This document shows, in pieces, positions 33,136-61,700 of a stretch of 64,000 nucleotides of DNA. A program made the position numbers and the translations under genes. The notes beneath the pieces are model-generated. The model was given only the letters and a program-made list of their open reading frames with translations. It was not told the origin of the DNA and did not search any database. Numbering within the stretch: position 1 is the first letter of the stretch; each line of letters begins with the position of its first letter. The stretch comes from Owenia fusiformis (taxonomy: Eukaryota): contig CAIIXF020000001.1 of assembly GCA_903813345.2 (NCBI GenBank), positions 21,514,001-21,578,000 on the forward strand, read 5' to 3'.

Positions 33136-33252
33136 TTTTGGGATGAGATTTTGGATAAGGTTGACTTATTTTGGTAAGATTTTTCTTTATAGGGTGACGT
33201 CATAAACCCGTCAAATCGATCATATATGATCGATTAGGCATGACGGAGTTAA

Positions 33253-37612: not shown

Positions 37613-37684
37613 ACCCATATAGCTCAGCGGTAGAGCGTGTACCTCTTACGCAATAGGTCCTGGATTCGATCCCTGGTTCCGCCA
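37613..37684 (+). pseudogene. Degenerate tRNA-like sequence (tRNA pseudogene or SINE/retroelement head; most like tRNA-Ala by eye)
   Basis: A-box TAGCTCAGCGG with an intact D-stem (GCTC/GAGC), B-box-like GATTCGATCC and correct tRNA spacing. The acceptor and anticodon stems do not pair. Confidence 0.65.
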
Positions 37685-37777
37685 TTACTTAATTTACTTG
37701 TTTGCTTAAAGTACTTCAGGGATTTTGAGGACTTTTTTAAGGACTTTGAATCACCTGTGATTCATTTGATTAATTTT

Positions 37778-40700
37778 ATGTTTCTAGGGAATCAGAATAA
37801 AGTCATTGACTTCAAGTTTAATAAACCATCACGTAAGAAGCGTGTATTCGTCACTCAAGAAAGTCCATTTCCTGTTCCCATAGCAACATTAACCAAGCAA
37901 CGGACCAGCAATCAAGGATGGTATTACTATAGAGGGCAGCTTGAAGGGAATACAGTTGTCATTAAACACTCTGGAGATATTGACTACCTGTATAGAATGG
38001 TAAGTGTCTTGAATGTGAGTGTGCGGTCCATTACTTTAAGCAACACATTAATCACTGTCTGTTCTCTGTTTATCAGAGATAGTTCTAGTACAGAAATGCT
38101 AGAATTATTTTACTAACAGCTAAATAAAACTTAATGTGCATTCGGCTAAGGCATTTCATTGATTGTATGTGTTTGTGTGGTGCATCTCTTTCAGTTAATT
38201 TTCAGTGAGTGAATACATTAATCATGAATATTGTGAGAGATAATGTTTCATAGACAGTCTATGGCATGGGCCATTTTCCACCGCTATATGGGTCAGTTGT
38301 AAAATGGCCCGACCTAGTAACCTACATGCATATTTCTCTGTAATTAATCAAAATTAAGGATTAAAGATGGCATGATACTCTAGCTCATTTGAATATCTAC
38401 ACACCAGTGTCAGTCTCTTTTTTGACATCCACATCAATATGGAGCAATAGCAATGTGAAGAATTTGGGAAGTTTTCTTAATTATCTCAATTTCTCATGAA
38501 CCATTTTTTTTTAAAAATAGTATCATAACGTACCTTAATATCTTGGTATCAAGTTTATACGATTCATTTGAGTGACCAAAAAGCTTAAAGGGCAAAAAAT
38601 CAAAGTGATCACGGCCTTGTGATTTCCAATATTTGACAAAACATTTTTTCACCCTGACTAGGTCATGACCTACTGGGCCATAATCCAGCCCAATTAAAGA
38701 TTGATATGTACAATTACTTAATCAAGTGCCATTAATCTGCTAGCATAGTGTCTTTGTGATACAGAAGATGTTAGCATACAATATTGAGCAGTTCACATAC
38801 TTTGTAATATTAAAATTGTTGAAATAAGACTAGAAGTTTTGCAGTTCTGATATGTCAGTTCACAAGTTCTAGTTAAACAAGGGGGGGGGTATAGCATGCC
38901 TACTACAAGAATACAATGTGATACAGTTTACAAGATCTATGAACGATATTAATTGTTTTAACCTCACACCTTTGCTACTATTTTTCCATCTGATAAAAGA
39001 GCTTTGGCATTTAATCTTTTTATACGAACATATGAGGATATGCTGAATTTAATTGTGATAAGACAATATGTGTGAAATTGAATAAAGCAGTAAATAAGAG
39101 TTACTACGTTTTGACATATTTCATATGTAGAAACTGCTGTGAATGTATTCTTTTTATCCCTCTATTATTCATTTACAATTGACTTGTTTCTTTCACTATT
39201 ATTCAATGTGACTTTATTTAAAAAATAACGTTGTCTAATAATAATAATATGTTGTCTTCTGATAGCTTGTATTCTAAAGCTTCGTTTTTCTAAAAATAAT
39301 TATACTTGTACATACAGAATGCATAATTCATTTACTCAATGGACTTTTATATTGAAGGTGTTGATATTCATAATATATTAGTGAGCCTAGGCCGAGTATG
39401 TGCTAAAACAATAGTCACTCTTGAAAACTAAAAAAGAAAATTTAATGGATATATTGGCGTTATATACAATGTACTGTAAGATCAACATAACAGATAATAA
39501 TCAACTTGTCCATTCTCATTTAGTCATAGGTGACGAGCAAGAAAAGGCTGCAAACAAGCAATCATATTCAACAAGAAATACAGATTTGTTTGACTTCCAA
39601 ACCCCATAACAATGGTAAATGCACTATATGAATATTTCAAAAAGAAAGGCAATGTACAGAACAATCAATAATGATACCCATACAAAGAGAAAATGTTTAG
39701 ATTCCATATAACTAAAAACCCTGATTGATGCTTATTTGTTGCCTCAATATAATCACAAAAACAGAGATTAGCAGATTTCTAGAATATTAGAAAGATTTCG
39801 CACATACGTGAAAGTACAACTTGTAACATATACTTATTAGGGTGTTTCATTTTTGGAACTTTTTTTCTGATCAAGTTGCTTTTCATACATTATGATCTAT
39901 GGTTAGTAGGGACCGCACAAAAAAATTTCAGCCAAATCGGACATCGTTTGCCTCACCCCCTCAAGCCATCTTTATTTGACACATTTAGCATGAATACATT
40001 AGATTTAATTATGAAACATGTACTAAATTGAAAACTGACATATAAAATAGGTGGAGTCCTATATTCTAGTAATAAATGAATTACAATATCAAGTGACATT
40101 TGAAGATGTTTTGAATGCATTGATTTGCTTTCTATTGATACACGTTTCTAACTTTATGCTGCAAAAAGATAAAATTGATGACGCCCACTTTCTTATATTT
40201 TTCTAGGGGTAGGGCACTATAAAGTGTTATTAAAAATATGAAATAGTACTTAGTCATTATAATAGTTGTATTAAAATATCACAGATAGCAACGAGATGAC
40301 TTTGGATTACTTGTTTGAGCTGTAAAAGCTGTAATCTTTTGCTTGAAGCTACAAATATAGAATAGATGAGATTAAAAAAACGTGTCGCAGATCAAAATTA
40401 ACACAAAAAGTTTGACATCTCTGGATTCAGCTGTCATAAAATGTTGTATTATGGCTTCTTACATAAAATACATAAGAAGGCCTTTCTAAAGAGCCATTAT
40501 ACATCATTTTATGACAACTGAATCCAGAGATATCAAACTTTTTGTGTCAATTTTGATCCACTACACATCTTTTTTGGTCTCATCTATTTTATATTTGTAG
40601 CTTCAAGCAAATGATGACAGCTTGTACTGTTTAAAGAAGTATTCTAAAATGATTTCCGTGCTATTTCTGATATTTTAATGTGTCAAATAAAGATGGCTTG

Positions 40701-43700
40701 AGGGGGTGAGGCAAACGATATCCGAATAGCAACTTGATAGGAAAAAAATTCCAAAAATGAAGTAAACGTACAAGGTGTTTCATAATGTCAGGAAAGATAT
40801 TCTGTAATAAATAAAGGTCAAAGGGATGCCATTTGTACTTTTTGAATTGTAGCATGTTTAGTTGATCCAAATGTGTTTGTCTAGAATAAAATAGGCTCAT
40901 ATATAGTACATATGTTATAGACCCATCTCTTCTCAAATTGACTTTTTGGAGCTCGTTATGAAACACCCTGTATGTCATTTGTTGAGCTAGTGAATGGGTA
41001 GTTTCCAGGAATTGCTAGAACCTATTGGTTTGATTGGTGTTTCAAATTGATGGTTAAAGTATTTGATTGGATACTGTTCCTACTCAGCCAATTAATTTAA
41101 AAAAATGCTTGCGATCAATTGTTCCACACACATGTAGGTAAAGCTTTATACTGAGATCCAACTGTATACGTTTTCCGGAATACGTTTATCATCTACGAAT
41201 ATATACCGTTTTGTAAATTCATTGAACTTATACTGATTATGAAAACTTTGAAATAATCAACTTGTTTATGTAATGACTCACTTTAAAGGATCATGACTCA
41301 TTTTAAAGGATCGTGTTTATAATACACTACAACTACTAGGACACTGAAGCAAGCATTTAATTATAATGTGCATAATCTACACGTGCAGATGACAGTGCAT
41401 TCAGTCTCTAGTTGATGGAGCTTTTCTCTATCGGGAATAGTTATGTTCCATTAACTACAATTTAAAATTGATTTTAGTAGATATAATAGTTCGACATGAC
41501 CCTTTAAAGTATACGTATACGTATAAGTTGCACTTTCACTTATGTGCGGAATCTCTCTAATATTTGCAAGAAATGAATTGTCAACAGTGTATGATAAGAT
41601 GAAAATATGTACACATTATCAGAAAAAATGGAATCATTTTCAAGTGAATCTCTATTAAATTCAATGAATGACATTTCTATTATATCATACTGCAAAGGAC
41701 TTGTACCCCAAGATTGTCATTCTGCTCCTAATATGGTTATAATTTTGGAAAGATTGTTGATAATGGCATACCATCAATTTATCAGCCCTTTGTTATTTTT
41801 GACAAATATGGAAAAAAGTGCAGATATTCTGGGATTAGTAAGAGAAAAACGCTTGAAAGTTGCATGTAGGTTCCTTGGGATTTCTTCCATAATAAAGGCA
41901 TGACTACAATACATGTACATGTATAGTTAAATCTATCCTTTGGGTCTGGGATGACCTTCATTTTTATATGAGGAGGGCCCTTCATTTAAAATATTGATAC
42001 CCAAGATAGATACTTCCAAGATTTTGTATGAATATACAACTACGGTGTATTGCAATTTTACTGTGTGAGCAGATTCAACAATATTGAAATGTTCATGTAC
42101 TAGAAGTACTCTACACTCAATTTGTATAATCATGTTATGCTTAATTGGGTGAATCAGGTTGGGCCATTTTACAATTTTAGTTAAGGTATGAGATAGGTCA
42201 TGGAATTAGGTCATTTGGGCCTTTTCTCCCATGGAAGCTATGACCTAAATATGAGGTGGAAAATGGCCCATGCCATAGACTGATAGATGGCAGTTGTGAG
42301 TTCACTTTCAAATGTGTGTGAATTCATTTAGATATTTTCTCAAACAGTGAAAAATGGCAATGTATCATTTCAGAATGACAAAATAGTAAAAAAAATTGTC
42401 AGCAGAAATTTGGGTTTTTACAGTATAGGCCATATAAGTTGTCACTTTTTGTCAGGGAACTAAAAAGTCTAAAAATTGTCTAGAGGGGCTCTCAAGTGAC
42501 AAGAGTTTGTGATAACCAACCAAAAATGGAATTGCCTGGCAAGGAGTGTTATAATGGAATACGTATAAGAAACTCTACAATACAAGTTACATATCTAAAG
42601 TATTTATAAATATGGTATAACATGTTTCCCGATAGACCCACCCCCCCCTAAATTTAACCAGGATTTTCAAGGTGTAACCATTTTGAACCTCAGTGACATT
42701 AAGTCATGGCAAACATGCTTTGTGCACTGCTTTTGCACCGATTGTTTTATGATTCTGTCAAAGCAGCATCATAGTGGTTCAAATTCTTCCCTTCAGGATA
42801 TTTAATAAGTTTATTTGATTTTAAAATTTCAAGTGGATTGAGCACTGGAGACAATGTTTTTATTTATTCCAGGGTTTCTTCGGTAAAGGTACTCTATCAA
42901 GACTTCAACCAAATTACAACACCTGGTTCAGGAAAGCCACTGTTGTAGAAAACACTCAGGAAACTAGCACTAAAGAAGAAAACCAAATATGTGAGCCTAA
43001 AGACAAAACTACTGGAGAGGAAAGGGTTAATACTAATATTTCTGGAGAGGAAAGAGTTAAAGCAGGAATATCCAGAGAAGAAACTCTTAAAACTGATTAT
43101 GCAGGCCGGACCAAAGATTTGCGCATTATGAACAAAAGAAAGTAAGTACTATCAATCTAGATCTATATTTAAGCAAGGTTTTCATTTTTATGAGCTTTAT
43201 TTCATTAAACGTGATAAAGATCTTCCTTTATTCACTTTATATATGATAAAAAAATGAATTATGGTGAATATTTTTCATTTGCAAACCACAAAAGTGAATA
43301 AAAATATAATCATAAGTATCCGAAATTGGAAAAATACATATCAATAATTCATATTCTCTTGTTTAAGCAACATGATTTACAGAATTGAGTTGTTTTTTTA
43401 TGACTTTTTAAGCAACCACTAATATCAATTTAATAACATTTGTTCGCTTTAGTCTGAATCATCAACTAATTATAATGTAAAATACATGAAGTGAATGTAC
43501 ATGTAGTAAGTGTACATATAGTAAGTGTACATGTTGTAAATATTCATATTTCAACACCAAATATTTAGCTTCTTAAATTAATTTCAAAGTTTTCAAGTCT
43601 CACATCACAAAAAATGATGTTCAAATCTGAGCTTGAGGAAATATAGACACAAAAGCTCATTTATCAAAATTTATTCATATCTTTCAGTGTCAGTGGCTGC

Positions 43701-46700
43701 ATGATTCTTTCCCAGTTTCAATCATTGATCCTCATCAGATTTGTTCATTCTCCAATATTGCATGATGGAAATTTCAATTAAAAATAAATAATTCAAATTA
43801 TGTTATTGTGAGCTCATTGTTCAACTGTCCCAACTCACTCTCATTGGAGTATTTGATCTTTTAGAACAATTCTACGCATTTTATATTATATGAGTTCAGT
43901 CAATGAAAAGTTTAATTAAAATGTATAATGACAAAGAAAGTCGTCAGAATGTATCTCTGTGTCAAATACTGACATCTCACTTGTCAATTTCTACTGACAT
44001 ATACTGCTTTCTCATGCGTCAAGATTTATTGACATCTCAAGAGGTTGTAAAACTTATAAGAAGAATATAAAGTGTTTTATGGTAAAGATGTCATTGCTAT
44101 CTCTCAACTGATGCGCTTCAAAAGTTGCCCTAAGCATTTCTAGACCTTATGGATTGTCACTACTAGGATCATGTTTGTATGAGCTGACATCTTTGTTTGC
44201 ATAAGCTGACATCTTTGTTTCTATAAACTGACATCTTTGTTTCTATAAGCTGACATCTTAGTGCTTAGAAACTACCATCTGGTATCCCGTAAAGCCTTGG
44301 ATCTGGTTGTGTGTCATTTCTACCAATTAAATGATGGACACTTGCACTTATATGTGTCCTACCAATTGACTGGGAGACACTTGCATTCAGTGTAGGTGTC
44401 CCATAATCTGCAAGGAGTGTTATCAGACCTCCTGCACATATTGTATCCACAGCATGGGAACTCACTCCCTCCACAGTAGCCATCCTTAGAGATACCATAG
44501 CCACACTGAAATGGAGAAACATTGTTTTGGAAGATTTTACCCTATAAGACCTACTTTTTGACAAAAGTTTTTCACAAGCTTTCCGATGGTACCATTGGTT
44601 TTAAAATCCCATTGATTTTCACATTGGTTTTTAAATGAAATATGTGGGTCATCTGAACCCCCTTTGGCCATGTATAGTTTATGGGCTAAATTGACACATT
44701 AAAACGAACAATTTTTGTCAAACAAGTCCACAAACAACTCTGTGAATAATTTGCCTACATGTATTTGGTAAAACTGACATGTGAGCATAACTAGATTGAA
44801 AATGTGATTTTGTTTTTTGAGGTATTGATGTACAAGTACACCAGTGAACAATAGAGAATATTTCACGGAAAAGTGAGAAACTTCCAAAATTAGAGAGTTG
44901 CATTTTTCTTGGTCACCTTGTACTTGCATTTTATTTCACTGGCTTATGGACTTATTTTTTCTGACATATTGGACTGGCTTATTGTATTGACTTTATGACT
45001 GATGGTGATTTATTATACTGACATATTAGATTTATTGTACTGACCTGATCTTCATTGGGGTTATCCAAAGATGAGTCACCAAGATCAGATCTGCACACAC
45101 AATGTTTTCTATTTGCATCTTTTTGGCATGGCTGCCATTTACGCAGGAATACATTGAACTGTTGGCAGTGTTCTTGAGACACACATTCATCAGACATCCC
45201 ACCGCAATATACAGCTTTTGTCTTCTCTTTGGTTTCTCGGCCCTGGAAGGAGTCATGTTTTAGATTGAGTATATAGTAATTTCACAGGTTTTTCCCCAAC
45301 AGGTGTCAAAATAAGTAGGCCTAAATATTAGAATCTCTTTTGACAGGATACAAATATGGTGGCATCTTATTTGTGAATTTTCAACAGGGTGAAGCTATTG
45401 ATTTTATAATATTGATTGTACAGTGAAACCTGCGAGAAAATGTGTTCACTGTAGGTAGGTCTTCATTACATAGAGGATAATTAATACAGAAGTCAATGTG
45501 AAGAGGAAGGGTGTTTACTAGAGACAGGTGTTCACTAGAGAGAGGTGTTCACTAAGACAGGTTTTACTGAACACTGATTATTGGTATAGGTATCTGGCAA
45601 CTTTAATACTTGTATAAATGATGGTGGGAGGAGTATTTCAAAATATCTTTGTTTCAATGTTGGACACAATGATAGTTTTATGGATGTCTTGTCTGAATAT
45701 TTATTTTTTTAAATAATTCTGTGACAATTATTTCTATATATTTAAGTAAAATTCTATATTTTTCAATAATTAAGAGTCTGGATTTGAAATATGAAATGCC
45801 CTGACCCAAGACAACCTCTACGTTATCTAAATGGTCCTTAATGCCCTTGTTAACTTGCTATAAATATATTATGTTATCAAACGAGACTGATGAACAACTC
45901 GAAATAAGGCCAGACTTGTAAGTAAACAATATTATGATGTTCAAAACAAGTTAATATTTATTTAATTCAATAATTTCTTTGTAATTCAAAATGCATGTAA
46001 GAGAAAAATTGTTTGAAGACCCAATAGAATTGTTAGAAACATTGGCTTGATGTTTCATTCATAATATTTCATATCTGATTAGAACTGTATATTATATATG
46101 TACAGGTATGTAGTTATACGAGTGCAAAGTTTCGCAATCTAATTTTCAAGATTAAATATTTCATATACTTGTCCAAAAGCTATTAATTTCTCAACAGTGA
46201 TATCTTATTTTGGGTCTATAAGTGTGATTGTCTCTCCATGTCTTGTTAAATAAGGAAGCATTAAATGTTGCTTGGTTCATCAAGTCTCTTCTGGAGAGCC
46301 TATATGTATTGATAGGTCAGAAATATATGTGCTGTTGTATATCAGTTTTATTGAGGACCGATTCTATGACATGACTTTCAATTTTATTTCGCCATCTCAG
46401 AAGATTTTCATTTAACATTACATTACATTTACTTCTGAGATAAATACCCAGTAAGACTTTTCATTAAAGTACTTTTGAAATAAAGCCCATGGGCTTTTAT
46501 TACAAAAGAAATAATTTAAATTACATTCATTCAAGAACTCAAGTTCTCATTACAGATCTAGAAGTTTTGAATTTCATAGCACGTGTTAACTTTTTTAGTA
46601 AGAACACAATTTTATTATTTGCCAAAAATTCTTAAACTGTTCAGGGTGAAGGGGATATTATTTAAACAGATCATCTTTCTTTCTACCCCCATCCATTTTT

Positions 46701-49700
46701 GAAAATTATTTGCATAATATTGACAGATATGCGCAAATCAAACTAAATTAATTAATATCCATAGTTAGTAACACAAAACAGAAAGTATAAGAAAAACTCA
46801 CCTTTAGCTGTTTGACGTTTTCATGTTTGTCTGATGGCATAAAGCGACCAAATTTAAAGGTTGAAGCACTGATCGAAAACTTAAGTTGCAAACATATCAC
46901 CACCAAAATAACCTCCATTGAAACAAGTGAATGAGTTTTGAAAAACATAATTCAGTCTTTGATTGTTAGTTTTTACTCTGATTTTATTTTCTTTGCTATA
47001 TCCGATTTCTGTAAATGTTATTTCTGATTTGTGTTTCGGGTTTCAGACATAAATTTCCTGTAAAATCTTATACCTTTGTCTATCCAGAATATGAAATTGC
47101 AAATAGGTTTGCTAAATCTTGCTAAGCAATTTATACTCGGCTGCTTGAGACAATCATAGTCAGAGAATATTAACTTAGGGGGTTATCTCAAAGGGATTGC
47201 TCTGAATTCTATTTTATTCATTTTCTTGACTGCGAGATAACCCCTTCGAATGTGTAAGTAAATAGACTTTTTAAAGTGTGAAGTATTTTTTCCAAAAATG
47301 GAACACAGAAACACTAAAAAAAATTCACATACCTTTGGCTAAAGCCTTTCATTAAAAACAGTTAATAGTTTATAACTGTGTGCATTGATTTTCGAGTAGG
47401 ACTTACACAAAATTATCTTCACTCAGAATGGAATCATTTGGGATCATATGGAACAAGCTAATATAAAATGCATTGATGGCAAATCTTGACCATTTTAAAT
47501 AAAATACCCATATATCCAAGTCAGCGCTACAAACTACAATCAGACGTATTGATTTTTCATTTTCAATTGTTATGAAATCTTGAATGTGGAGTTTATGAGT
47601 TTATATCTCGGAAGAAAGTGCATTGTTGGGTCTTTTTACTATACGCACTCTAGTTATAGCTTCATATCAAAGAATCATTACTCGTTTGAAGAGTGCAAAC
47701 TAAATTGAGCTCTTGTTATGGGTAATTAATCAGCATGTAGCAGAGAAATTTGAGGATTCAAGAGACTAAAATTAAACATTGTTATTCACTGATGGGTAAT
47801 AGAATGTGAATGCTAAGTGATGATAAATCTGCACACTCAAAAATGAATGTCTAGTAAATATTTTTTAATTTGTCTATCATAGTCTTAATGTTGCATAAAG
47901 ATTTTTTTACTTTCCCACTGAACAAAGTATGAGAATGGATATATTGAAGCTATTCTTTCATTTGTCTGTCTGCGTGATAGGTAACTCAAATACCAGTTGT
48001 CGAAATTGGTTTCAATTTAGTAGGCTAATATGTTTTATGGGCATAAGCCATACACTTAGGAATTAAAATCTGATTTGTTGCTTTAACATTGCTGGGTGAA
48101 TTTCTCTATTTTAGTATTTTACACTTTTTACATTTAGGAACTCGACTTGACATTTTTTAATTGGGGCTTTATTTAAATTGTCTGCCATTTTCTGTAAAAA
48201 TTATGTTTTTTGCATGCTATAACTTAAATTGCTGTACATTCTTTCACTTTTTCGCTATGAGGATTGTAGCATCTTCGCACGCTTGGTCTTCACTGAGTCC
48301 AGATGGGAGCTGAGTGAACGGAGATGACTTCTTAGAGTTCTTGTTTTTCTAGTTCAACATTCCTAAATATGTAACTGAGCATATAAAAATGCGTCTGCGG
48401 TTTTTCTCAAGTAGCGAATGATTAATTTTAAGTATTGGGATGGTGTTTAAACTCTAGTTTATTGAACATGAATTGTTTTTCTCTCCTTAATGATTCATCT
48501 AATATGGAATGCTTAAGTAAGTTTATTGGCAGCTCTTGGAGGAAAATAGTTCCTAACAAATTGATATCGACACCAATTCTTGTAATAATTCGTAAATCTG
48601 AAAAATCCCTTACAATTCATCAGAACATTGAAGGACATCACCTTTTTCCCTATTTTTAAAGTACATGTACCATTCCCATTGACTTTATTTTAACGCTACC
48701 ATTTTAACTCTCTATATTCACCTTTCACCAAAAATGGATATTTTAGGGTGGAGCTTACAATCAGATAATTCAGGTTAGTGACATCAATTTTAGGTTCTGT
48801 TGATCATGTTTACGACAAATTACATAAATCAGACAGTAGGTTGGGAAAACAATCTAGGCTCCTGTTGCAGAATATTACAACTCATTATACTTATTATTTT
48901 ATGAAATAATAATGTAATCTGAAACTAATTGAAGTTATTCGCAACTTATTCCCTATTTTGTGTCGGACAAATAATGTGATCAGTGTTTGAGATATCACAT
49001 GCTGAATGAATGTCCTGAAACTGGTTACCATTTGACAGTTTTATATTATTTCCACAATATGTTGCCCAGATGATATATCGTCAATTAAATTATGAATATT
49101 CAAAAGAGGACATTTAAATCTACAATATGTAAAAATATCAAAATTGTCCGAAGCAGGCGTAATGTGCAGAAGACCCATTCAATAAAAGACAAGTTTTGGT
49201 TTAGAGAATGAAGTTCATCAGTCTACTGCGCTGATTATGAAAAATATAGAAATAACACCCAAATCAAATTATGGATATTCAAAAGAGGAAATCTAAATCT
49301 ACAATATGTCAAAATTGTCCAAAGCTGATGAACTTCTTTCTCCAAACCGAGACTAGTCCTTTGAAATCACAATCATTAGCAAAATATGCGAGTTGCATTT
49401 ATGTAAAGACTGAAACACTTGATAAGCTCTTGTATAGTATTAAGGAAGTATCTCAAAAATTCAATCCAGGATTGTTATCTCTTAAGAGACACGGCATATA
49501 GTTAACATTCATACATTGATTTAAAGAGATGCTCCCCAAGGTCAGGTAATAAAACAATTTTATTCTGTTTTGATCGCCTCCCACATGGCTTCCTGAAGCT
49601 CTCCTATATCTCTACCAACTGCATAATCTTTCTCATCAAATTTGGGAGAATAATCTCCCTTTTCCTTTCTTCTTTAAGTTCATAGCCGTAGGCAGCGGGG

Positions 49701-52700
49701 GTTCGGTGGGTTCGAACGAACCCCCGGTCAGGATTTCCCAAAATATCATTTTGTGGAAAAATGCATATAACCAGAAACATTAAATTACTACATGCTATTT
49801 GAAAACTAGGCATAGGTTTATATGACCAGTAAATAAATTGATATTTGTTATGGTGAACACGAGAGCCTTATTTTGTTAAAACACATGTCATAGTGAAGTT
49901 ACACTTCCCTCAAAACGTTTTGCAACCTTAGGCATACGGGGTGAGATTTAATTTTGGGCCCCAGAGCATGAGATTTTACATTTAGAAATAACAATAATTT
50001 CGCACAATTAATTTAAAAGCTGCTTCTTCTCGGACAAAATAACCCATCTTGGGCAATAGCTAAATCAGTCCTCTGAAGGAATTTTGTTTTAAGCCAGTTC
50101 TGGTCCAATACGAAGTTATTGAAAGTTATTGAAAACAATGCAGACGTCCCATACTCCGAATGATTTTTACAACATTTACGAATAAATATCTGGAATAGTC
50201 GTATAATATTGATGAAACAAATGTTCTTTCAAATGTGTACATCTCTGTTTTGTTTTATTATGTCACCACCAAAAGTGGTGACATATTGTTATGGTCTCCG
50301 TTTTTTTGCGACGGCGGTTGGCGTCCGGCGGTTGGAGGTTGGCGTCCGGCGGTTGGAGGTTGGCGTCTGTAACAATTTCTTACAACTTCCTATAACTTAA
50401 CAAATACTGTTTAGACTGACTTCAATTTTTTTCTAAATCATCTACATGTTCTCAGAAGTTCAAATCTCACTTTAGATTTGACATTTGACCTTCAATGACC
50501 TTCTCAAGGTCAAAAAGGTCTTTTTTTCAACTTGCTTCACATTGACTAAATTTTTTTTCAAAATCATCTACATGTTCTCAGAAATTCAAATCTGACTTTA
50601 GATTTCACATTTGACCTTCAAATCTGACTTTAGATTTGACATTTGACCTTCAATGACCTTCTCAAGGTCAAAAAAGGTCAAAAAGGTCTGTTTTCAACTT
50701 GCTTCAAATTGACTAAAATTTTTTTTCAAAATCATCTACGTGTTCTCAGAAATTCAAATCTGACTTAAGATTTGACTTAAGATTTGACATTTGACCTTCA
50801 ATGACCTTCTCAAGGTCAAAAAAGGTCAAAAAGGTCAAAAAGGTCTGTTTTCAACTTGCTTCAAATTGACTAAATTTTTTTTTCAAAATCATCTACGTGT
50901 TCTCAGAAATTCAAATCTGACTTTAGATTTGACTTAAGATTTGACATTTGACCTTCAATGACCTTCTCAAAGTCAAAAAAGGTCAAAAAGGTCTTTTTTC
51001 AACTTGCTTCAAATTGACTAATTTTTTTTTTCAAAATCATCTACATGTTCTCAGAAATTCAAATCTGACTTTAGATTTGACATTATACCTTCAATGAACT
51101 TCTCAATGTCAAAAAAGGTCAAAAAGGTCTGTTTTCAACTTGCTTTAAATTGACCAAATTTTTTTAGGTGGTGACATTTTGTCATGTTAATGCCTTGTTT
51201 CAATTACAATTTAAAATATTTCTTGGAACAGCCCCTGGGGCTGGCAAGTACCCCAAACCAATTGCAGAAAATTAATTTAAAACGTTGTGAAATGAATAAC
51301 CCAGATGCGAGTAGAAATAATCTTGATTTACGTCATTAAAAATTCAAAAGTCAGTCAAAGTAATATCATATTTAAAATCTACATGTAAAATTACATCTAG
51401 AAATGTGGTTTTAAAAAGTGTGTATCAACTTTGAAAAATTAATTTTCTTTGAAAATGTGACTTCTAGCTCGGGGAGATTCCCCATAGACCCCATGCTATA
51501 AAATCACAAAAAATGAAATATCTTTTCTTTTAGTGGACAGATAATATTTTGCTTTACTGGACATATTTTCATTAGTATAAGTATCAGACACATAAGGGTT
51601 ATATTAAAATTAAGCCACTTAAATTGATAGTATTCAAGTTTAAGGGAACTTTCTTATATACCTGCCATGTTAATTGACCCGAATCAGCCACCTGGTGGTG
51701 AAACTGGTAACTACCTACTCGCATTTGGGTAATTATCTAAAAGCGTATGTGAACGACCGAACGACTAGATTTGTGGTGTACGTCAATTTATTCACTTTAC
51801 AGAGCCAGAGGGGCTAGAAACAAATCATAACAAGCAATTACAATATAATAATAACATTGCATGAAATGGCATTGGCAAGGCTTATCAATATTACAGTATG
51901 AAATGGCATTGGCAAGGCTTATCAATATTACAGTACGAAATGGCATTGGCAAGTTTATTTGAAACACAATCTAATTTGACTATTTTACATTTGACAACAT
52001 GAATGCTAACTTAATTGAATGTTTGGCATGTTAACTTACAGAACTGGCTCTTGCTTTGAGCTTGAGGGAAATGTGGGAACCAATGGTGGTGAATCTGTGG
52101 CCTAACACACTGCCTGAATAAAAATTACAATACATTTCTAAGTTGACAAAAATACCATAAATGATTGGTAAAATATCAGAAATATGTGTTGTATTTAATC
52201 AAGTAATATCTAATAAAGCATATAAAAGTAAAATAAAGAGTGGATGGCTTACCAATATGAACGATTGTGGATGATTTTGTAGATTTTCTGGAGAGGTAAA
52301 AATATATATGTGGCTATTGTAGTGACTGTAAGCAAGAGGAAGTTGCACATTTATGTGCCAGCTATTTATGTGAATTGAAACATGAAATCTATATAGTGCC
52401 ATCTATAAATGCAACTATAAACTTTAAAGTGCAGTTGGTCACATCCACGCGGACAACGTTGACAGACCATCACAGTTAAATATTACTTTGTTTTTATGAC
52501 CAAAAGTGTACATGGTTATACAATTCTAAAGTTAAATGTTAATGAATTCTGAGAATTATGCCTTTAAAACATATGCCATTAAAAGTAATGCTTTTTACAT
52601 AAATGAATGCCAAAATAATGCCTTAATATGCCATTTTACATTTTAATACAAAAATGTGTTGCCATTTACTGGCTTTTTAGCCCAAAATGTACACCCCAAA

Positions 52701-55700
52701 ATACAAAAATACCTTAACTATGTGCAACTATGTACATACCGGCGCGCAAAACACTATTGCTTCAGAATATATTTGTGGTTTTAGGCCACTTATGAAATTG
52801 AAATACATTAAGAGCAAGTTGTGTTATCGTAATATGTAATTCATACACTTTTTATGTGCATTTTAATTGGTTTATAGTATCATACACTTTATATGTGCAT
52901 TTTTAAGATCATTAATTCAAAAATGGGCTTACATGTATAAGTGATCCATATTTGTAATTAGTTATATTAGGCAACACAATAATAGTAATATTAATGTAAA
53001 AACTCCTACATTACCGACCAATTAAGATAAGTAATTATACTGTCTACCGACCAATTAAGGCAAGTAATTTTACTAACATAACCGACCAATTAAGGCAAGT
53101 AATTTTACTGATATATCTTCTCATACAATTAATACTATGTATATGTTAACCTATCAGGCTTTTGTCTTATTCTTGTTGACCTTCGCAGAGCGGATGGGTC
53201 CTCCTCCTGACTTGGATTGTCAATCTGTAGGTTTTGGCTGTTCTAGTGTTCACATTTGAGGGTAACTCTGATATTGAATATCATGATAATCAATTATACA
53301 TTACATATCTGTTGTTGACTTCGGGATGCTGCATATACAGTACATCTGTTATCATCTGTAACGTGATTGTCGATCTTAGTTGTCCAATCTTGGTTTTCGA
53401 ATATCGGTTCAATCTCGGATATTGAATCTCGGTTGTGGAATCTCGAACCTGGAATCTCGGTTATCGAATCTCGAACCTGGAATCTCGGTTATCGAATCCC
53501 TGACATGGAATCTCGGTTGTGGAATCTCGGACCTGGAATCTCGGTTATCAAATCTCGGACATGGAGTCTCGGTTGTCTATCCCAGATATAGAATCTCGGT
53601 TGTTGGATTACAGTTCTTCTCTGGCTCTGCACTTTGTTGTTGTTGTTGTTAGCCCGCAGTACCATATGTGAACGACCGAACGACTAGATTTGTGGTGTAC
53701 GTCAATTTATTCACTTTACAGAGCCAGAGGGGCTAGAAACAAATCATAACAAGCAATTACAATATAATAATAACATTGCATGAAATGGCATTGGCAAGGC
53801 TTATCAATATTACAGTATGAAATGGCATTGGCAAGGCTTATCAATATTACAGTACGAAATGGCATTGGCAAGTTTATTTGAAACACAATCTAATTTGACT
53901 ATTTTACATTTGACAACATGAATGCTAACTTAATTGAATGTTTGGCATGTTAACTTACAGAACTGGCTCTTGCTTTGAGCTTGAGGGAAATGTGGGAACC
54001 AATGGTGGTGAATCTGTGGCCTAACACACTGCCTGAATAAAAATTACAATACATTTCTAAGTTGACAAAAATACCATAAATGATTGGTAAAATATCAGAA
54101 ATATGTGTTGTATTTAATCAAGTAATATCTAATAAAGCATATAAAAGTAAAATAAAGAGTGGATGGCTTACCAATATGAACGATTGTGGATGATTTTGTA
54201 GATTTTCTGGAGAGGTAAAAATATATATGTGGCTATTGTAGTGACTGTAAGCAAGAGGAAGTTGCACATTTATGTGCCAGCTATTTATGTGAATTGAAAC
54301 ATGAAATCTATATAGTGCCATCTATAAATGCAACTATAAACTTTAAAGTGCAGTTGGTCACACGTATATCATTTATAAATTCAAGCGTTTGTTCAAATTT
54401 ATTCATTCTTTCATTTGTTCAGTATTAATTTATCCATCACTTTTTCAAAGAAAAATCAATTATTGCAAAAAATGATTTTTTCAGATACACTCCACTCATC
54501 TAAGATATTGCATAGAATTCAAATTGTTATCGTTCCATTTTACTTGCTCTCCATTTTCATGTTAATGTCATGATAGGTTTAGCGAATAAATTACATAATA
54601 AAAAACACTAAAATATCATATGGTATTAATCTTCAAATAATGAAGGCCTAATTTATTATCAAGCCGTCTGAACTTAACAAAATACGTTTTATATTCGAAC
54701 AGCCGCTTGTATATGATTTATATCCACCAAAACGTTTTTATCATCAGTTGCAGTTGATCTGCTCCAGGGGACGTGCCACTGAGCTCCGGGGACGTCCAAA
54801 GAAATATTTTAAACTTTTTAAAACAAAGCATAACGGAGACCCACTAATTTTAATAACAGATGTTTTCATCATTAATACGACTACCCCGGATAGTTTAAAA
54901 ATCATTCGCGTAAACGTTGTGAAAAGTTATCATAGAAGAGCGATCTTTCGGAATTTATAGGGTGTTTGCGCCTTGCCTTGCATTTGATCCGAACTGGCTT
55001 CCAACAAAATTCCTGCAAAATAATGATAAGCCATTGCATGAGGTGATTTATTTTGTCCTAGATGAAGTAGCTTAAGTTAAAGAATAAATTGTGCGAAATA
55101 GTTGATATCCCTTGGTAAGATTTCAGGATATATATTTAGTAAAAGATTCACCGAAATATATTTTGAGGCAGAAAATTAATTATAAGTTGTCTGACTTTTT
55201 TGCACGTTGCCTGTTTATTTTACTTTGTGAACATTAAAGTTACAAAGCTACACGTCCTGTGTTATTTCAATGAGAGAGGTTTCTTGATAAAGCCTATTAC
55301 TTTCAGACTTTGCTTAAGTAAATAAAGACATCATTTTGATTGATAAAATTCAAATTCAATTGTCTACTTTACTTAATGAAGGTATTGAAATGAATTATAT
55401 TTCCCCTCCCAAAGTTTTTTCGTAACAAATTATGCATATAAGAATTCAAACTTAAAGATGCTTTAATACATAATCCAATGGGTGAGTTAGGATTGCCAAA
55501 CTTTTGGAGGGAGTGTAATTGTACAAATTGCACAAAAAGGTTTTTATTTGAGGAACCCAAATGAAGAGGGGGGGGGGGATTTGTGAATAACATGAAAATA
55601 GAACCCCCGGTCACCAAATCCTGGCTACGCCACTGAAGTTCATACCTTTTCATAATTTTTAGATTGAATGTTTCTTATTCTCTGTGGTATGTATTTCTTA

Positions 55701-58700
55701 TTAAAAGGTATATTTAATCAATATTAAGTTTCAACAGAGGGATAAGTAAATAAATAAGCTCCACTAGCTCATTATTTTATAAAACTATTTGGTCAGAATC
55801 AGATACATCTCAGTTTACCTTAGTCTGAAAGAATAAGGTTTGCCACAATATTGATATAATGTGGTTTAATTAATCGATTTATAGTACCCCACACAAGTTT
55901 TTGATAATTACTTTGACCCGTGATTTGAACACTCTATCCTTGACTATTTGTTATTAAATTTAGCAGACATAAACTAGAGGAAATTTTCCAACATTGGAAT
56001 TTTTTTGTTTTTATTTTACTTCAATAACAATAAAATTACAAGTAATCAAATCAAGGGTGTCATTAATGGGTTTTCACCAAATTGACGTCATAAAATCATT
56101 CTATGAATTGTTCATTTTAACAATTTTATTGACTTTTATCTCATTATCTTATCAATATTCATCTTATTGAAGGACTTCTGAAACAATATAGAGAAAAGTA
56201 TATATAAGGTTAATTTACTGAATACTGGAATAAATGTTGTAATGCTACCCCCAAAGGGCCATTTGTTGAATCCAAGTGAAGTATTTAACAATAGTGTTCA
56301 ACAAAGAGTATGTAGGTGGAAACCGCCAGGAAATCCAAGAGATGAGTATGGGCATGGGGTAGTTGGGCCACGCAACTTTGAGGAGTGTGTGATGGCCTTA
56401 AATGATGCGTTAGCTGAGATGCAGGATCCTTCAATGTACGAAGCATTTTATTTTAAAAGAGCAACTGGAAGAGAATTCTACAAGCAGACACATGGCAGTA
56501 AAGTCGCTAAGACAGTATTATCGAAAAGAAAAAGATCTGCCCATAACAAGTACATTTTCAACTGGCCGAAGAAACTGTAAATCATACAACCTTGACCATA
56601 GCCAGACAATTACAATCAGACAGTATAGATCTAGGACAAGTATAGAATCTCCAAATGTAGGATTTGTAATAAACTATTCATAAGTACCATAAATACAGAT
56701 GAAATTCAATAAGATGAATATTGATAAGATAATGAGATAAAAGTCAATAAAATTGTTAAAATGAACAATTCATAGAATGATTTTATGACGTCAATTTTGT
56801 GAAAACCCATTAATGACACCCTTGATTTGATTACTTGTAATTTTATTGTTATTGAAGTAAAATAAAAACAAAAAATTTCCAATGTTGGATATTTCCTCTA
56901 GTTTATGTCTGCTAAATTTAATAACAAATAGTCAAGGATAGAGTGTTCAAATCACGGGTCAAAGTTATTATCAAAAACGTGTGTGGGGTACTATGATAAT
57001 TAATGAATGTAGTAATTTTCAGGAAACTCTAAACTTAAGCAACCCATGTATAATGAAAATAAAGACATAGTCATGTATTAGTCATTTCAAACACAAAACA
57101 TGATATATGAACTACATATGGGCTTTGATTAATAATCTCTTGTTCTCATTGGATGTATCAATTTTCCAATCTGTCTTTTAGTTTCATCAGCTTTGTTATA
57201 TGACTGGTTGAATTAAAAATTGCGATCTATTTCTTATTGTTCACTAAATACTTGATCTCAAATCGAATGTACATGTACCTTGATTTTATAATAAATGTAT
57301 TTTGCGGGCCAATGTACATGTATTACTAATCTTGAAATAGTATAAGGAACAATAGATAGCAGTTTATGTCTTTTAAAGAATATTCCCTGGGCATACTGTA
57401 ATTCGGACATCATCCTTAGATAGTCCATGTGTAAAGTCCTCTCTATGGGGGCATCTCAAAAGTCAATTTCATAACTGCATGACCACTCACACACCATTGT
57501 TCATAGAACAAACATTTTGGAAGAATGATCGATTTTTGGAATAGAAATAATTTTCATATTTTTCAGTACAAACAAAACATTGATTTCAAATTATTATCAG
57601 ATATATTACAGATCACAGTGTTCTTATTATATGATAGTTGAAATTATTGCTCTTTAATGACACGAAATCGTGATGTACTCCTTATATCCGTGTGATAATA
57701 GGAATTATTACAAACAGATTAATTATAATTAGCTGATTAGATAATGGGGATCTCCGATTATTGCAACATTGATATTGGACTGAATGGATATAAATCATTC
57801 TGTGATTCATTTTGTTTGTTTCATGCATGACCAATTTTTTAATTCAATCGATTTTTTGTCTTAAAATCAATCAACCTGAAACAAACGTGAAAATTAGCCC
57901 TTTATTTACCAGGAGTAATTTTGGAGTTAAGATTTCTTTTTAAGATTTTATGTATTTTTGATAGAACAAAATTATATAGAGGTTATTTTATGGAAGGGTT
58001 GGAATATGGATTTTATTTCGAGGGAAGATATGATATTGGCCAAGGAATATATCATGTTGACCCAGTGTGCAGCCCAAGTGTGAATATGATATTTTTCGAG
58101 GCCAATATCATATTTTCTTGAGGAAAAAATTCATATTCCATCATGACCATCAATAACATATTTATTCCATAATATTTTTTCAGATACATATTCATTTTCA
58201 AGTTCGAATTGTCAACCCAATGATGATGACATAAAATGATACAATTTGATTTATCATATAACATTTTAAACTTTTATAACAGGTTGTAAAATAGAACAAA
58301 AATGTAAATCAAGAGAAATTCCTGGGACAAGTTCTGATTCGGGATTTTCCTAGGGAAAACATGTTATTATGGAACAAACTTTAGTATTTTATGATGGCAT
58401 AGAGCGCAAGAATGGGATACCAAGTGCAAGATGTTCTATTTTCCTCCACAGATGACTGAGCAATGAGGCCGATTTAAGTGATCATGCCAGAAATGGGGTT
58501 GTGCCACTTTCAGCCAAGTCAATTTTACCATCATAACATAGTGATAAGTAACAATAAAGGATTTATTCCAACTAAAATTACACATATTATATCATATTTA
58601 AAACCCCTTTTAATTCCCAATGTCCAAGTTGTTTAACCACAGGGTCCTTCAACATGACCCCATTCCTTTCAATGCAAATGTCTGCCCTAGATCTCATCTC

Positions 58701-61700
58701 AGACTGCCTCCCTGATGATGTTTCTCTCTGTCCCCTTAGATCCTCCACTGCTGCTACAATCCTGGTCCTTAGATCATCAACATTTCTTGGTGGTGTTGTG
58801 TAAACTGTTTCCTTGATATAACCCCAAATAACCATCCTGACATAGCCATTTCAACCCCTCATTGTTCAGTCATTCATGAAAGAAAAAGTGGCACAAACCC
58901 ATTTCTGACATGGTCACTTAAATCCCTTAGAACTCAGTCATCAGTGAAGGAAAATAGACGACTTTGGTATCATAAGAAAGAGGACAGCATAACCTATGTG
59001 AAATTTTCCTATTATTATTCATATTTGAAAATAAGCAATTAAATCCAGGTTTTCTTTTTTGGACACCCTGTATAATTTGACTGTATCATCAGTCAAGCAT
59101 CTTTCAAAAATCAAAAAGCTTCTTGACAGAATGACACAGTACAGAACAGAATATGTCAATTAAGTAAAAAAAACTTATCTCAATTTTCTAGAGTGATAAA
59201 TTAGGTCTCTAGAAAGTAACTAGTTTTATTCAATAAAGACAGTACACAGTTTTCCTACATATCTAATTAAATAGAATATGTTTTCACTCCATCAAGGCTC
59301 TCTCTGTAACTATATATCAATCTGTTGTATATTACTTTAGCTGTCAGATTCATGAAAACACACAGGAGGCCTTTGTTGAAAATGGAAAGAAGTTGAAGAT
59401 GTTTTCACTGTATGTCTTTCAATAAAAAACTTATTTTACTTCTCTGCGCTTACTTCAACTTTTATGAAATTGCACATGAATATTTAATCAAAGAACCATA
59501 TATAAATATGTAATATTCTTAAATTGCATTTGACCATTTAATATTTAGAATGTTAACATTTTTACATTTTTTCATTTGGCCATTTGAGAATTGATCATCC
59601 AGGATTTAAGTTATGAAGCTATTCCTTCTGGAAATAAAATAAATATCAGAATATTACTTTTAAAACTTTGAACTGGTGAGTGAATTAGTACACAAGTACT
59701 TTGCAATCATAAATTGAGAGAATGTTTATATTTTAGGTACATTTTTATTCATTTGTAATTTGTATAAATATTTGTATTTTGATTATTTTTTTTAGAAAAT
59801 AATGAATCATTTTACTATCCAACAAAGAAGTAAGTGTGATACATATACCCTTTCATCTAGGTTAATATGATATCATTATTTTATCATCTGTCTAATAGTT
59901 CCTTCATTCTGTTATCTTTATCAGATCTAATTAGGTTTGGGGCATTCTGGGTAAATTTATGGGCAGCCATTTTGAATTTTCCTATAAAATGTATGATATT
60001 CATCTGTCTTGTTGATATACTCCCTTAACAGACCAATGTGACATTGTCTCAACAGGTTATAAGATAAAAGCTTCATCAATTACGTGTATCCTATAGTTAA
60101 TCGGACAGTCACAAGTTATTATGATTCTAAAGATTTTTCATCAAAAGATCCAGCTGGGGTCAACCTGTTAAATCAAGCTGAGACTCAAATTAAAAACATT
60201 TTCTCAGGAAATGAAAACTAATGAAAAAGGCAATATCATCAAATAGGTTGTACTAAGCTACTTACATCTTGTTAATACTGTCCTGCCATAATTAGTCTGC
60301 ATATAAGCTACCATAAAACATCATAGACTAAATTAATTTCAAGTTCGAATGTATTCAAAGTTTGATGAATGAGCTCTTTGCTTTTCTCACATAAAATCCA
60401 GGATTTAACTTGTTCAAAAAGATTATATAATTTTGACAGTAAACCGAATGGAGAGGTCTATAATTGTTTTGTTAGTCCGAAGAATATCTTAGATTTTTCT
60501 GACCCTTGAAGTTGACTTGAAGTTGGATAGATAGACTTCTGCAGTTCCACAACCATCGCTTTGAAAACATCGTTTGATGCCTTGAATTCAGACTTGGTAA
60601 TGTCCATCTTAAGTGTCTCTCTGATGTATCGTGCCACTCCCCATTTAAGAAGCTGAAATGATTTCAACTTATAAAGTCCACCGTCTTTTTTTCTAATACC
60701 AACGTAAAACTTTTTCAAAAAATTATCTACATCTGCCACGGCAGTAAGTTCACTCAATGGAGTCAAATTACTCTCCTGGGCGAAGTCCACTAAAAGCTTT
60801 GTACAAAGTTTTAGATTTTTCTTCGTATTTTGACTGTCTTTACTCTCTAAGAGACTAATAATATCCTCATCTTCAACATTTTTGAAACGGCTAGTGCTAG
60901 CGGCGGCCATTTTATCGTCTGATAATGACGTCATTTTAGTGGAATGCTGGGAATATTATTCACCGGCAATGCATTGCGCTGTGTACAGTTAAAATTATTC
61001 ACCGCTCGTTGACCAATCAAAATAGAGTATTTCAACTGAGGTACTAACAATAGAATTTGTAGTAACAGTAGTCATAAGTTATACACATATAAAATGCCTA
61101 CTTTTTAATTTGGACATGTAAGACATGTTTTCTAATGCAATATCGGAATTCTAACATAAATAAGGTCTATAATGTCTTTGTTAAAATGTATTTTCAGATA
61201 TTTAAGACGATGTGCCTGGAGAAATCAAAAGGAAACTCTTCAGTCTTATGTGAGTGACCTTGAACTTAACATAGGAGCAGACGGAGAATGTGACCTTGAA
61301 TATGCAAGAGGGGTTGGACCTAAGTCAGAAGAAACAGAAGGCAATGGTATGTTTAACATTTATAGGTTTGTAGCTCAATAATGTAAAATGGCAAAATTTC
61401 TCACCAAAACATTTTTAGATTTCAGAAGGCAGTCCAAAATGTTTGAGATTTGTGTTTTATTCCTTTAAAAATGTGTAATATATAATTTTATTCCTGATGA
61501 TTTTTCAAATGCTTAAAAGATTTTCTGTTAAGTTATATCATATTAGAGACTGTAATAGGTATCTCACATTTGAAAATAATATATATTGAAAAAAATTTCA
61601 GGTGGAAATATAGTCAGCATCAAACGTCAGAAGTTAGAAACTGATGATTCCAAGAGTCCTGAGATGAACATAGACAACTCTGGAGACTGTAAAGAAATAT

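Follow-up and report, generated by a model that had tools for sequence, protein, structure and literature searches.

A gene for a small secreted cysteine-rich protein was analysed in a 64,000-nt stretch of the genome of the annelid Owenia fusiformis (contig CAIIXF020000001.1, positions 21,514,001 to 21,578,000, forward strand; hereafter the window, to whose numbering all coordinates refer). The gene lies on the minus strand, consists of three coding exons (46948-44359) and encodes a precursor of 163 amino acids made up of a leader, a Lys-rich spacer, a module with six cysteines (module 1), an acidic linker and a module with eight cysteines (module 2). The gene is almost certainly real and coding. 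Taken as a whole, the data are on balance best explained by an expressed oweniid annelid gene for a secreted two-module precursor that would act as a two-headed extracellular binder. That the modules have a knottin-type or disulfide-directed beta-hairpin (DDH) type fold is suggested more tentatively by their cysteine patterns, and falls somewhat short of being probable.

The minus-strand exons 46948-46802, 45242-45045 and 44505-44359 encode 49, 66 and 48 residues, respectively, the last exon ending with a TAG stop codon. The coding part of exon 1 (46802-46948, Met1-Lys49) contains the leader and the start of the Lys-rich spacer. Exon 2 (45045-45242, 198 nt) encodes the rest of the spacer, module 1 and the linker, and the coding part of exon 3 (44359-44505) encodes module 2 (Cys116-Trp163), whose first cysteine is specified by the first codon of the exon. 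On the minus strand the borders of intron 1 (45243-46801, 1559 nt) read AAG/GTGAGT...CCTTCCAG/G and those of intron 2 (44506-45044, 539 nt) CAG/GTCAGT...CCATTTCAG/T; both introns are thus of the GT..AG type. Since the coding part of exon 1 and exon 2 are 147 and 198 nt long, both introns are in phase 0, and exon 2 is symmetric (0-0). The GC content of the coding sequence is 0.42 versus 0.31 in the introns. The gene model put forward in the original prediction, with the same exons, splice sites and intron phases, was reproduced in all these respects. It had also been remarked that the cysteine frame of the last exon is absent from the list of open reading frames (ORFs). This is the case because the frame has no start codon and is therefore missing from a default start-to-stop list. 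Among the 585 stop-to-stop ORFs of at least 40 amino acids in the window the ORF of exon 3 ranks third in cysteine content.

Transcript evidence came from 12 contig runs, all with one organism label, which contain 7-32% of the sampled words of the segment 44300-47000; there are also three raw RNA runs with the same species label. Four runs were compared with the segment 43900-47400: X1 (study P1), X4 (study P2), X7 (study P3) and the raw RNA run X15. In X4 a single 1603-nt contig (depth 31) mapped to 47117-46801, 45241-45045 and 44505-43900, with 458 more letters beyond. The first joint of this contig (46801/45241) is the predicted junction 46802/45242 with the cut shifted by +1, and the second joint is 45045/44505, as predicted. 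The contig skips 1559 and 539 bases, and the skipped segments end with CT..AC on the plus strand, corresponding to GT..AG on the minus strand. In X7 a 453-nt contig (depth 19.5) contained the 45045/44505 joint, and a 301-nt contig covered 47124-46824. Both junctions foreseen in the original prediction were thus present in the X4 contig, and the second was found in two studies. In X4 and X7 the depth over the introns was zero, with the exception of a repeat in intron 1 and, in X4, a short piece of intron 2. Such exon-only coverage is what cDNA gives. It counts against this argument that the run type of the 12 contig runs, X4 and X7 included, is given as "RNA?" and is a guess; if these two runs were DNA, the joined sequence would represent a processed copy, and splicing would have to occur even then. 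Run X1 yielded unspliced low-depth pieces over the introns and exons 1 and 2, nothing over exon 3, and looks like DNA or pre-mRNA. In X15 no exon reads were found in 12% of the run, where the intron repeat was the only part matched; this is no evidence on expression in general.

In the spliced model (47124 to about 43442, 1585 nt) the longest ORF is the one of 163 codons, and the second longest, in another frame, has 128 codons. All seven of the listed differences between runs in the coding sequence are synonymous changes in third codon positions, a count that applies to the differences listed and is weakened by 14 further ones outside the list. Four of the seven are in exon 2, and between runs the codon of Cys139 is either TGC or TGT. 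Synonymous changes make up 20% of all possible changes in this coding sequence and 33% of the possible transitions, from which a probability of about 1e-5 to 4e-4 was obtained for the observed pattern. The 128-codon frame (45190-44265) was rejected as the coding frame: each of the three variants falling inside it would alter the encoded residue, and a leader is missing.

Two explanations that would deprive the ORF of its meaning have to be weighed against these results. The transcript could be a non-coding antisense RNA of the locus of TSEN2, the presumed host gene, with a fortuitous cysteine-rich ORF. Its antisense position within a housekeeping locus, a 10-codon upstream ORF, the long 3' untranslated region, the failure to find a homologue in protein searches and the lack of exon reads in the sampled 12% of X15 would all suit a non-coding RNA. 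The distribution of the listed variants, seven of seven synonymous in the cysteine frame and three of three non-synonymous in the alternative frame, argues against it, as do the cysteine spacing common to two exons (about 0.1% by chance, see below), the phase-0 introns placed exactly at the module borders, the hydrophobic N-terminal leader and the higher GC content of the exons. We regard this explanation as very improbable. Even less credit can be given to the idea that the ORF is part of a transposable element, or a decaying fragment of a pseudogene or retrocopy. Repeats and transposon-like ORFs abound in the surrounding intron, and intron 1 itself harbours an interspersed repeat of very high copy number (45421-45654, not part of the mRNA), for which the word depth in three contig runs was 2,457-47,926. 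In X15 this repeat attracted 160-250 reads per strand per bin; the flanking bins had 0-14. The depth of the exons was, however, ordinary (19-31, as opposed to thousands in the repeat), no repeat family of at least 60 nt in the window overlaps the exons, no second copy of the gene was detected in the window, and no transposon-related or other Pfam domain was recognized. Moreover, the ORF is intact and its polymorphism, among the differences listed, is synonymous only.

The intron 1 repeat has a 17-nt tandem core, GGTGTTCACTAGAGACA, present in 3.2 units at 45510-45562. Many joints that go back indicate that the copy number differs from one genomic copy to the next. The core was found nowhere else in the window, and it had no match in Rfam. 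In the published annotation of Owenia 5,779 gene models overlapping repeats were dropped (PMC9977687), and the high-copy repeat in intron 1 may account for the absence of the gene.

The N-terminus of the precursor carries a predicted signal peptide (residues 1 to about 27/28, 46865-46948), which was deduced from hydrophobicity. Nowhere else is the protein strongly hydrophobic: here the nine-residue Kyte-Doolittle windows beginning at residues 7-16 exceed 1.6, with a maximum of 3.13. The single hydrophobic core (residues 7-24) is followed by the small residues S-I-S-A. This fits the secretory leader that had been assumed, and the product is very likely secreted. The spacer (residues 29-61, about 33 amino acids) is Lys-rich with a net charge of +5 and contains no cysteine. 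Module 1 (Cys62-Cys99, 45093-45206) has the pattern C-x6-C-x5-C-x12-C-x8-C-x-C. It is followed by the linker RSDLGDSSLDNPNEDQ (residues 100-115, 45045-45092), which is 16 amino acids long and acidic (net charge -4). Module 2 (residues 116-163) has the pattern C-x9-C-x6-CC-x4-C-x7-C-x8-C-x-C, and its gaps (9, 6, 0, 4, 7, 8 and 1) are the same as in the original prediction. Seven of its 48 residues are aromatic. The mature chain would comprise 135 amino acids (15.5 kDa, pI 7.9; the modules have a pI of about 6.1-6.2) and 14 cysteines, enough for seven disulfides, and has no N-glycosylation sequon. The dibasic pairs, at residues 83, 94 and 140, are all located within modules.

Module 1 had been proposed to be a paralogue of module 2 lacking exactly the first and the fourth cysteine (C1 and C4). 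When the two modules were aligned with MAFFT, all six cysteines of module 1 fell on cysteines of module 2 (C2, C3, C5, C6, C7 and C8) with one 5-residue gap, and the motifs YCGG and PC were common to both. Without C1 and C4 the gaps of module 2 are 6, 5, 7, 8 and 1 compared with 6, 5, 12, 8 and 1 in module 1, i.e. four of the five are identical. Random placement of six cysteines, allowing any six-of-eight subset of module 2, produced at least four matching gaps in 0.08-0.17% of 200,000 trials. In a Smith-Waterman comparison the observed score was reached by 42 of 5000 shuffles. The local alignment pairs three cysteines and shuffled sequences often pair three or four; because the number of aligned cysteines is thus not discriminating, the case for paralogy was built on the spacing test. 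The relationship between the modules was upheld by this test and by the MAFFT alignment. Since each module is encoded by its own exon between phase-0 boundaries, the duplication must have involved an exon and did not occur within one. No similarity at the DNA level was detected between the modules or between the last 200 nt of the two introns, therefore the duplication must be old. We consider it likely that the modules are paralogues made by exon duplication. A search of all six frames of the window with a regular expression for the framework matched only these two exons, and no further paralogue was found in the window.

Relatives of the protein were sought in several collections. A Pfam scan with E-values up to 10 revealed no meaningful family and no transposon domain. 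Two lines were rejected: Ku_PK_bind (E 0.13) and Albumin_I (E 2.8, 8.1 bits against a cut-off of 27), the latter being the only knottin-type line. Among the sequences of the Protein Data Bank (PDB), matches to WD-repeat chains, to WFIKKN2 (E 0.45) and to the membrane-proximal domain of ADAM17 (E 0.044) were discarded as non-significant. When module 2 was compared by phmmer with 1.84 billion protein representatives, 34 hits with E-values of at most 1e-3 were obtained (best E 5e-13). All 34 were proteins of 548-1892 amino acids matched in one to seven short stretches, and the four that were scanned proved to be WD40 proteins. The stretch ...SDNTPCRLWDTYT... of module 2 (44395-44433, residues about 140-152) mimics the WD40 repeat signature, and the hits must for this reason be artefacts. 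A relationship to WD40 proteins was rejected, as a peptide of 48 amino acids with eight cysteines is not a propeller blade and the match consists of the motif ...D.T.RLWD. The WD40-like stretch is a trap for automatic annotation. Word-index searches with exon 2 against proteins of 117-2000 amino acids and with exon 3 against proteins of 26-84 amino acids found no relative. Not even the protein itself was retrieved, thus the gene is not in those collections. The blank searches do not prove the family unique, because with so short a query only close relatives could pass. An exact-string literature search with a 10-residue piece of module 2 returned no papers. Rfam detected no family in 43000-47600, and the window was found to contain no tRNA. 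In agreement with the original prediction, in which no family had been recognized, Pfam, the PDB sequences and the 1.84 billion representatives gave no clear match to a described family or a transposon.

According to the mechanism that we propose, the leader of about 27-28 amino acids would be cleaved off and the mature two-module protein would be secreted. Each module would form a small knottin-type mini-domain, with a beta-hairpin braced by disulfides. In eight-cysteine spider knottins the pairs are C1-C4, C2-C5, C3-C8 and C6-C7. The pairs proposed for module 2 are C116-C134, C126-C139, C133-C158 and C147-C156, and module 1 would share this scaffold except for the first pair. A terminal C-x-C cannot sensibly pair with itself, therefore the C-x-C of module 1 must bond to earlier cysteines, which is what the eight-cysteine knottin pairing would provide. 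The joint absence of C1 and C4 from module 1 argues that C1 bonds C4. In the original prediction this paired loss was taken to support an inhibitor cystine knot (ICK) connectivity; it does fit the ICK numbering, but it fits other topologies too. Outside the cell the protein would act as a stable two-headed binder of a receptor, a channel, an enzyme or a surface. Its two compact modules with a flexible acidic linker between them can be likened to the bivalent toxins, in which avidity arises from two linked heads (PMC9950431). From our analysis an extracellular two-headed binder appears to be the most likely mode of action, and with its many aromatic residues module 2 would be suited to a carbohydrate or a protein surface. 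The earlier suggestion of a bivalent toxin, an antimicrobial peptide or a channel modulator is a guess.

The published consensus patterns accommodate the two modules in part. The ICK consensus, C-X3-7-C-X3-8-C-X0-7-C-X1-4-C-X4-13-C, and the DDH consensus, C-X4-19-C-X2(G/P)X2-C-X4-19-C, are both given in PMC3381931; the spacing of module 1 (6, 5 and 12) agrees with the latter. Module 1 has no equivalents of Cys I and Cys IV of the ICK. By its spacing module 2 is near the ICK consensus, not within it. Judged from the cysteine patterns, the protein looks and probably works like a knottin/DDH pair, and we have not filed it as a member of either family.

A number of observations weigh against the knottin/DDH assignment or against the duplication scheme connected with it. 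Loop 1 of module 2 has nine residues instead of 3-7, and its last ICK loop has 18 (more than 13) if Cys VI is C8, although it fits if Cys VI is C6. The central residue of the X5 segment of the DDH consensus is neither G nor P in either module (Q in VSQEH of module 1, Y in CGYNM of module 2). No knottin was found by phmmer among the PDB sequences for exon 2 or exon 3 at E-values up to 10, and a profile made from the two modules matched no PDB chain at the same limit. There is no dibasic site, and hence no pro-peptide site, before module 1. The mature protein is near-neutral and not typically cationic, which also makes a classical cationic antimicrobial peptide less likely. When the shuffling was repeated in a second test, the observed score of the module comparison was reached by 43 of 3000 shuffles, and 23 of the 3000 aligned six cysteines. 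BLASTP found modest similarity between the modules (E 0.032, 11 of 43 identities), and the missing DNA-level similarity described above belongs to the same side of the balance.

These points leave considerable room for a real secreted two-module protein whose modules are not knotted but have another disulfide-rich topology or a new fold, for example a hevein-like or a follistatin-like sub-domain, a plain stapled hairpin, or one compact two-lobed domain. Such a protein is quite possible, if less so than a knottin/DDH-type one. Besides the partial agreement with the ICK and DDH patterns and the absence of sequence matches to knottin families, it is favoured by the aromatic residues of module 2, for sugar-binding mini-domains are often rich in aromatics. 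The framework C-C-CC-C-C-C-C is not confined to knottins and is also that of hevein-type chitin-binding domains. Unrelated families share it, an example being conotoxin framework XV (PMC4278219), and a description of the colipase/prokineticin fold presents it as two DDHs joined head to tail (10.1101/485722). On the other hand, the 16-residue acidic linker free of cysteines and the even cysteine numbers of the modules (six and eight) favour two independent modules. Hevein pairing includes C7-C8 and would force the C-x-C to bond with itself; this spacing makes the pairing unlikely. As the Pfam family Chitin_bind_1 also gave no line at E-values up to 10, membership in the hevein type (CBM18) was rejected. 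A different origin of module 1, as a diverged membrane-proximal domain of the ADAM17 type unrelated to module 2, is highly unlikely. The best PDB sequence hits of exon 2 were indeed 2m2f and 9e6k (E 0.044 and 0.065; 17 bits), with which it has C..S..CV and N.FLRK..PC in common. These E-values are not significant, though, three of the four query cysteines in the aligned stretch are matched, Pfam reported no ADAM family for exon 2, and the spacing match between the two modules is much less likely to occur by chance. Returning to the knottin/DDH reading, its strictest form, in which a single secreted chain, generated by intron-mediated exon duplication, would combine a true knottin with a de-knotted paralogue of the DDH type, must be called doubtful.

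The closest parallels in architecture are the two-module ICK toxins, which have been described from spiders and from one remipede (PMC5577568, PMC9950431, 10.1101/485722). Like the Owenia protein, these double-ICK toxins (DkTx, Hi1a/Hc1a and CpTx1 of spiders, xibalbin 3/Xt3a of the remipede) are single secreted chains with two paralogous cysteine modules joined by a short linker, which has 4 to 12 residues in the toxins versus 16 here (PMC5577568, PMC9950431, PMC13172734, 10.1101/485722). They differ from it in that both of their modules are full six-cysteine ICKs encoded by the last exon, whereas here module 1 lacks two knot cysteines and module 2 has eight. In spider Hc1a the duplication was intra-exonic and the introns are in phases 1 and 2 (PMC13172734), in contrast to the one module per exon and the phase-0 introns found here; according to the authors of that paper, no bivalent toxin has been reported to have originated by an intron-mediated route. 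Scorpion ICK genes, too, have been described with phase-1 and phase-2 introns (PMC3694633). No sequence similarity exists between the double-ICK toxins and the Owenia protein, whose knottin-type fold is putative. We know of no venom apparatus in the host animal.

Mini-domains of this kind serve other animals as toxins or defence peptides, and single modules can be compared with several cysteine scaffolds. Xibalbin 1 (Cx6Cx6CCx4CxCx6CxC), an eight-cysteine ICK scaffold, is identical to module 2 in the core x6-CC-x4-C and in the terminal C-x-C, which speaks for the knottin reading, but differs in the distance between C5 and C6 (7 in module 2 versus 1), in loop 1 (9 versus 6) and in the hairpin loop (8 versus 6; PMC5577568). 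The same cysteine framework is found in eight-cysteine ICK scaffolds with a beta-hairpin 'staple' disulfide, such as spider SF23 (10.1101/485722), and in conotoxin framework XV (PMC4278219). For neither of these groups was homology in sequence or signal peptide found. The omega/mu-agatoxins are also eight-cysteine ICK scaffolds with a staple disulfide. As compared with DDH peptides (PMC3381931), module 1 fits in spacing and lacks exactly the two cysteines that close the ring in the ICK; it differs by the central Q and by a third predicted disulfide. A conversion of ICK to DDH via disulfide loss has been proposed for scorpion toxins (PMC3381931, 10.1101/485722).

Outside the venoms, CRP-I and mCRP-I ('pearl necklace') of the mussel Mytilus are likewise secreted lophotrochozoan proteins with tandem knottin-like cysteine arrays that arose by module duplication (PMC10138031). 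CRP-I is lineage-restricted, is composed of signal, pro and mature parts, and its function has stayed unknown despite assays (PMC10138031). The CRP-I array, C(X3-6)C(X1-7)CC(X3-4)C(X3-5)C in the same paper, does not describe the Owenia modules: in module 2 the loops of 9 and 7 residues are out of range and there are two extra cysteines, and module 1 has no CC. The CRP-I arrays are, according to this source, all encoded by exon 4 after a dibasic KR/RR site, whereas here no dibasic site precedes module 1 and there is one module per exon. No match to CRP-I was found in the searches of the protein collection. The inferred secretory leader and the two paralogous cysteine modules correspond to the architecture of the secreted cysteine-rich repeat proteins (SCREPs; PMC6262176). 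SCREPs are widespread, occurring also in non-venomous animals, and form a descriptive class, not a homologous family; as reported in that paper, most have Kunitz, WAP or similar InterPro domains and few are of the ICK type (PMC6262176). The word 'annelid' does not occur in this paper.

As for worms, single-ICK nemertides are known from nemerteans (PMC10674772), and in a review of antimicrobial peptides of worms only the macins are called knottin-fold (PMC6780910). Our literature search disclosed no ICK-type peptide described from an annelid, nor any such peptide from Owenia. The presence of ICK peptides in the venom transcriptomes of Glycera was not borne out, as the terms ICK, cystine knot and knottin are all absent from PMC4202326. 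The Owenia gene is thus different from the known systems in having one module per phase-0 exon, in its pairing of a six-cysteine with an eight-cysteine module and in its host animal.

The untranslated parts of the transcript were delimited with the help of the contigs. The 5' untranslated region in exon 1 extends over 46949-47124 (X4 contig 47117-46801, X7 contig 47124-46824). The first 28 letters of the X4 contig map nowhere in 43900-47400, and there may be a further exon upstream. A TATAAA motif is present at 47130-47135 on the minus strand, upstream of the 5' ends of the contigs (47117 in X4 and 47124 in X7). Its role is uncertain, because the distance of 6-13 nt from these ends is too short for a canonical TATA box at -30. 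An upstream ORF of 10 codons (MSETRNTNQK*, 47018-47050, minus strand), located about 70 nt before the main ATG, may damp translation. The confirmed part of the 3' untranslated region is 43900-44358, where the X4 contig is collinear from 44505 to 43900. Judged by the length of the 458 extra letters of the contig, it probably extends to about 43442. The minimum length of the spliced mRNA is accordingly about 1.1 kb, and the probable length about 1.6 kb. Two tandem repeats were observed in this region, one of a 22-nt unit (4.0 copies, 90% matches) at 44172-44259 and one of a 15-nt unit (3.8 copies) at 43483-43539, near the presumed 3' end.

The gene had been placed antisense in an intron of TSEN2. 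An N-terminal coding exon of this presumed host gene was identified on the plus strand at 37814-37996: it corresponds to residues 61-121 of the ORF 37634-38116, for which the PDB gave human Sen2 chains as hits (7zrz among them; E 3e-5 to 1.5e-4; residues 5-62 of Sen2). The tRNA_int_endo domain was detected in none of the 114 ORFs searched out of 128 plus-strand ORFs of at least 38 amino acids between 34 and 64 kb, the omitted 14 being inside 44249-46931. No downstream TSEN2 exon was found in 42 smaller ORFs between 57 and 64 kb, and PDB searches with the ORFs 61580-62497, 62312-62497 and 42825-43145 gave no TSEN2 match; these ORFs show an apparent resemblance to parts of the human protein. The gene is therefore antisense to, and downstream of, the first TSEN2 coding exon; that it lies inside a TSEN2 intron is probable, the upstream exon being established and no downstream exon confirmed.

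Several other elements were noticed in the window. An intronless ORF of the ASIC/ENaC type (2584-4239, plus strand, 552 amino acids; PF00858, E 3e-77) has 21 database relatives, all 21 from Owenia fusiformis, which points to this annelid or close kin (Oweniidae) as the source of the window. The best of these are 86, 85 and 81% identical. An identical protein was not among them, and the copy may be another one absent from the protein collection. Two Bystin exons are located within 18520-19263 on the plus strand (PF05291, E 7e-31 and 2e-25). An exon for an Fz cysteine-rich domain was found at 29640-30167 on the minus strand (PF01392, E 1e-14), and the minus-strand ORFs down to 21577 presumably represent the rest of a Frizzled/Smoothened-type receptor, which they resemble in our own reading. 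Inverted repeats were detected at 35905-36339/36514-36948 (435 nt, 94%), at 55982-56180/56696-56894 (199 nt, 96%, flanking the ORF 56182-56580) and at 31470-31618/32158-32306, and a weak match to zf-RVT (E 0.036) was obtained for the minus-strand ORF 32767-33165. Probably these elements, in and around the TSEN2 locus, are DNA transposons and what is left of a retroelement. Two 300-nt segments, 51746-52045 and 53665-53964, are 100% identical and 1919 nt apart. Between them there is a minisatellite with a 14-nt period (53383-53605), and upstream of them a tandem array of about 150-nt units (50426-51132). The identical pair may have arisen by a recent local duplication, or else stem from the assembly.

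What has been found is a spliced gene under selection that encodes a secreted protein. It is embedded, in antisense orientation, in a housekeeping locus, and the protein collections that were searched do not contain it. Small cysteine-rich genes are easily lost in annotation, and this one could join the gene set of the species. In kind it is no surprise, as spiders, mussels and a remipede have already provided tandem knottin-like proteins. There is a demand for stable two-headed mini-proteins as probes of ion channels and receptors. Because the two modules differ by exactly one putative disulfide, they offer a natural experiment on the gain or loss of the ring-closing bond. Should the modules prove knottin-like, the placing of each on a phase-0 exon of its own would run counter to the intra-exonic origin described for bivalent cysteine-rich toxins. 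If they were, more strictly, a true knottin and its DDH-type paralogue, the gene would encode the first two-module knottin-type protein with its modules on separate exons, and no such protein would have been described before from an annelid or from an animal without venom. A natural within-gene example of the ICK/DDH interconversion debated for spider and scorpion toxins would then be at hand.

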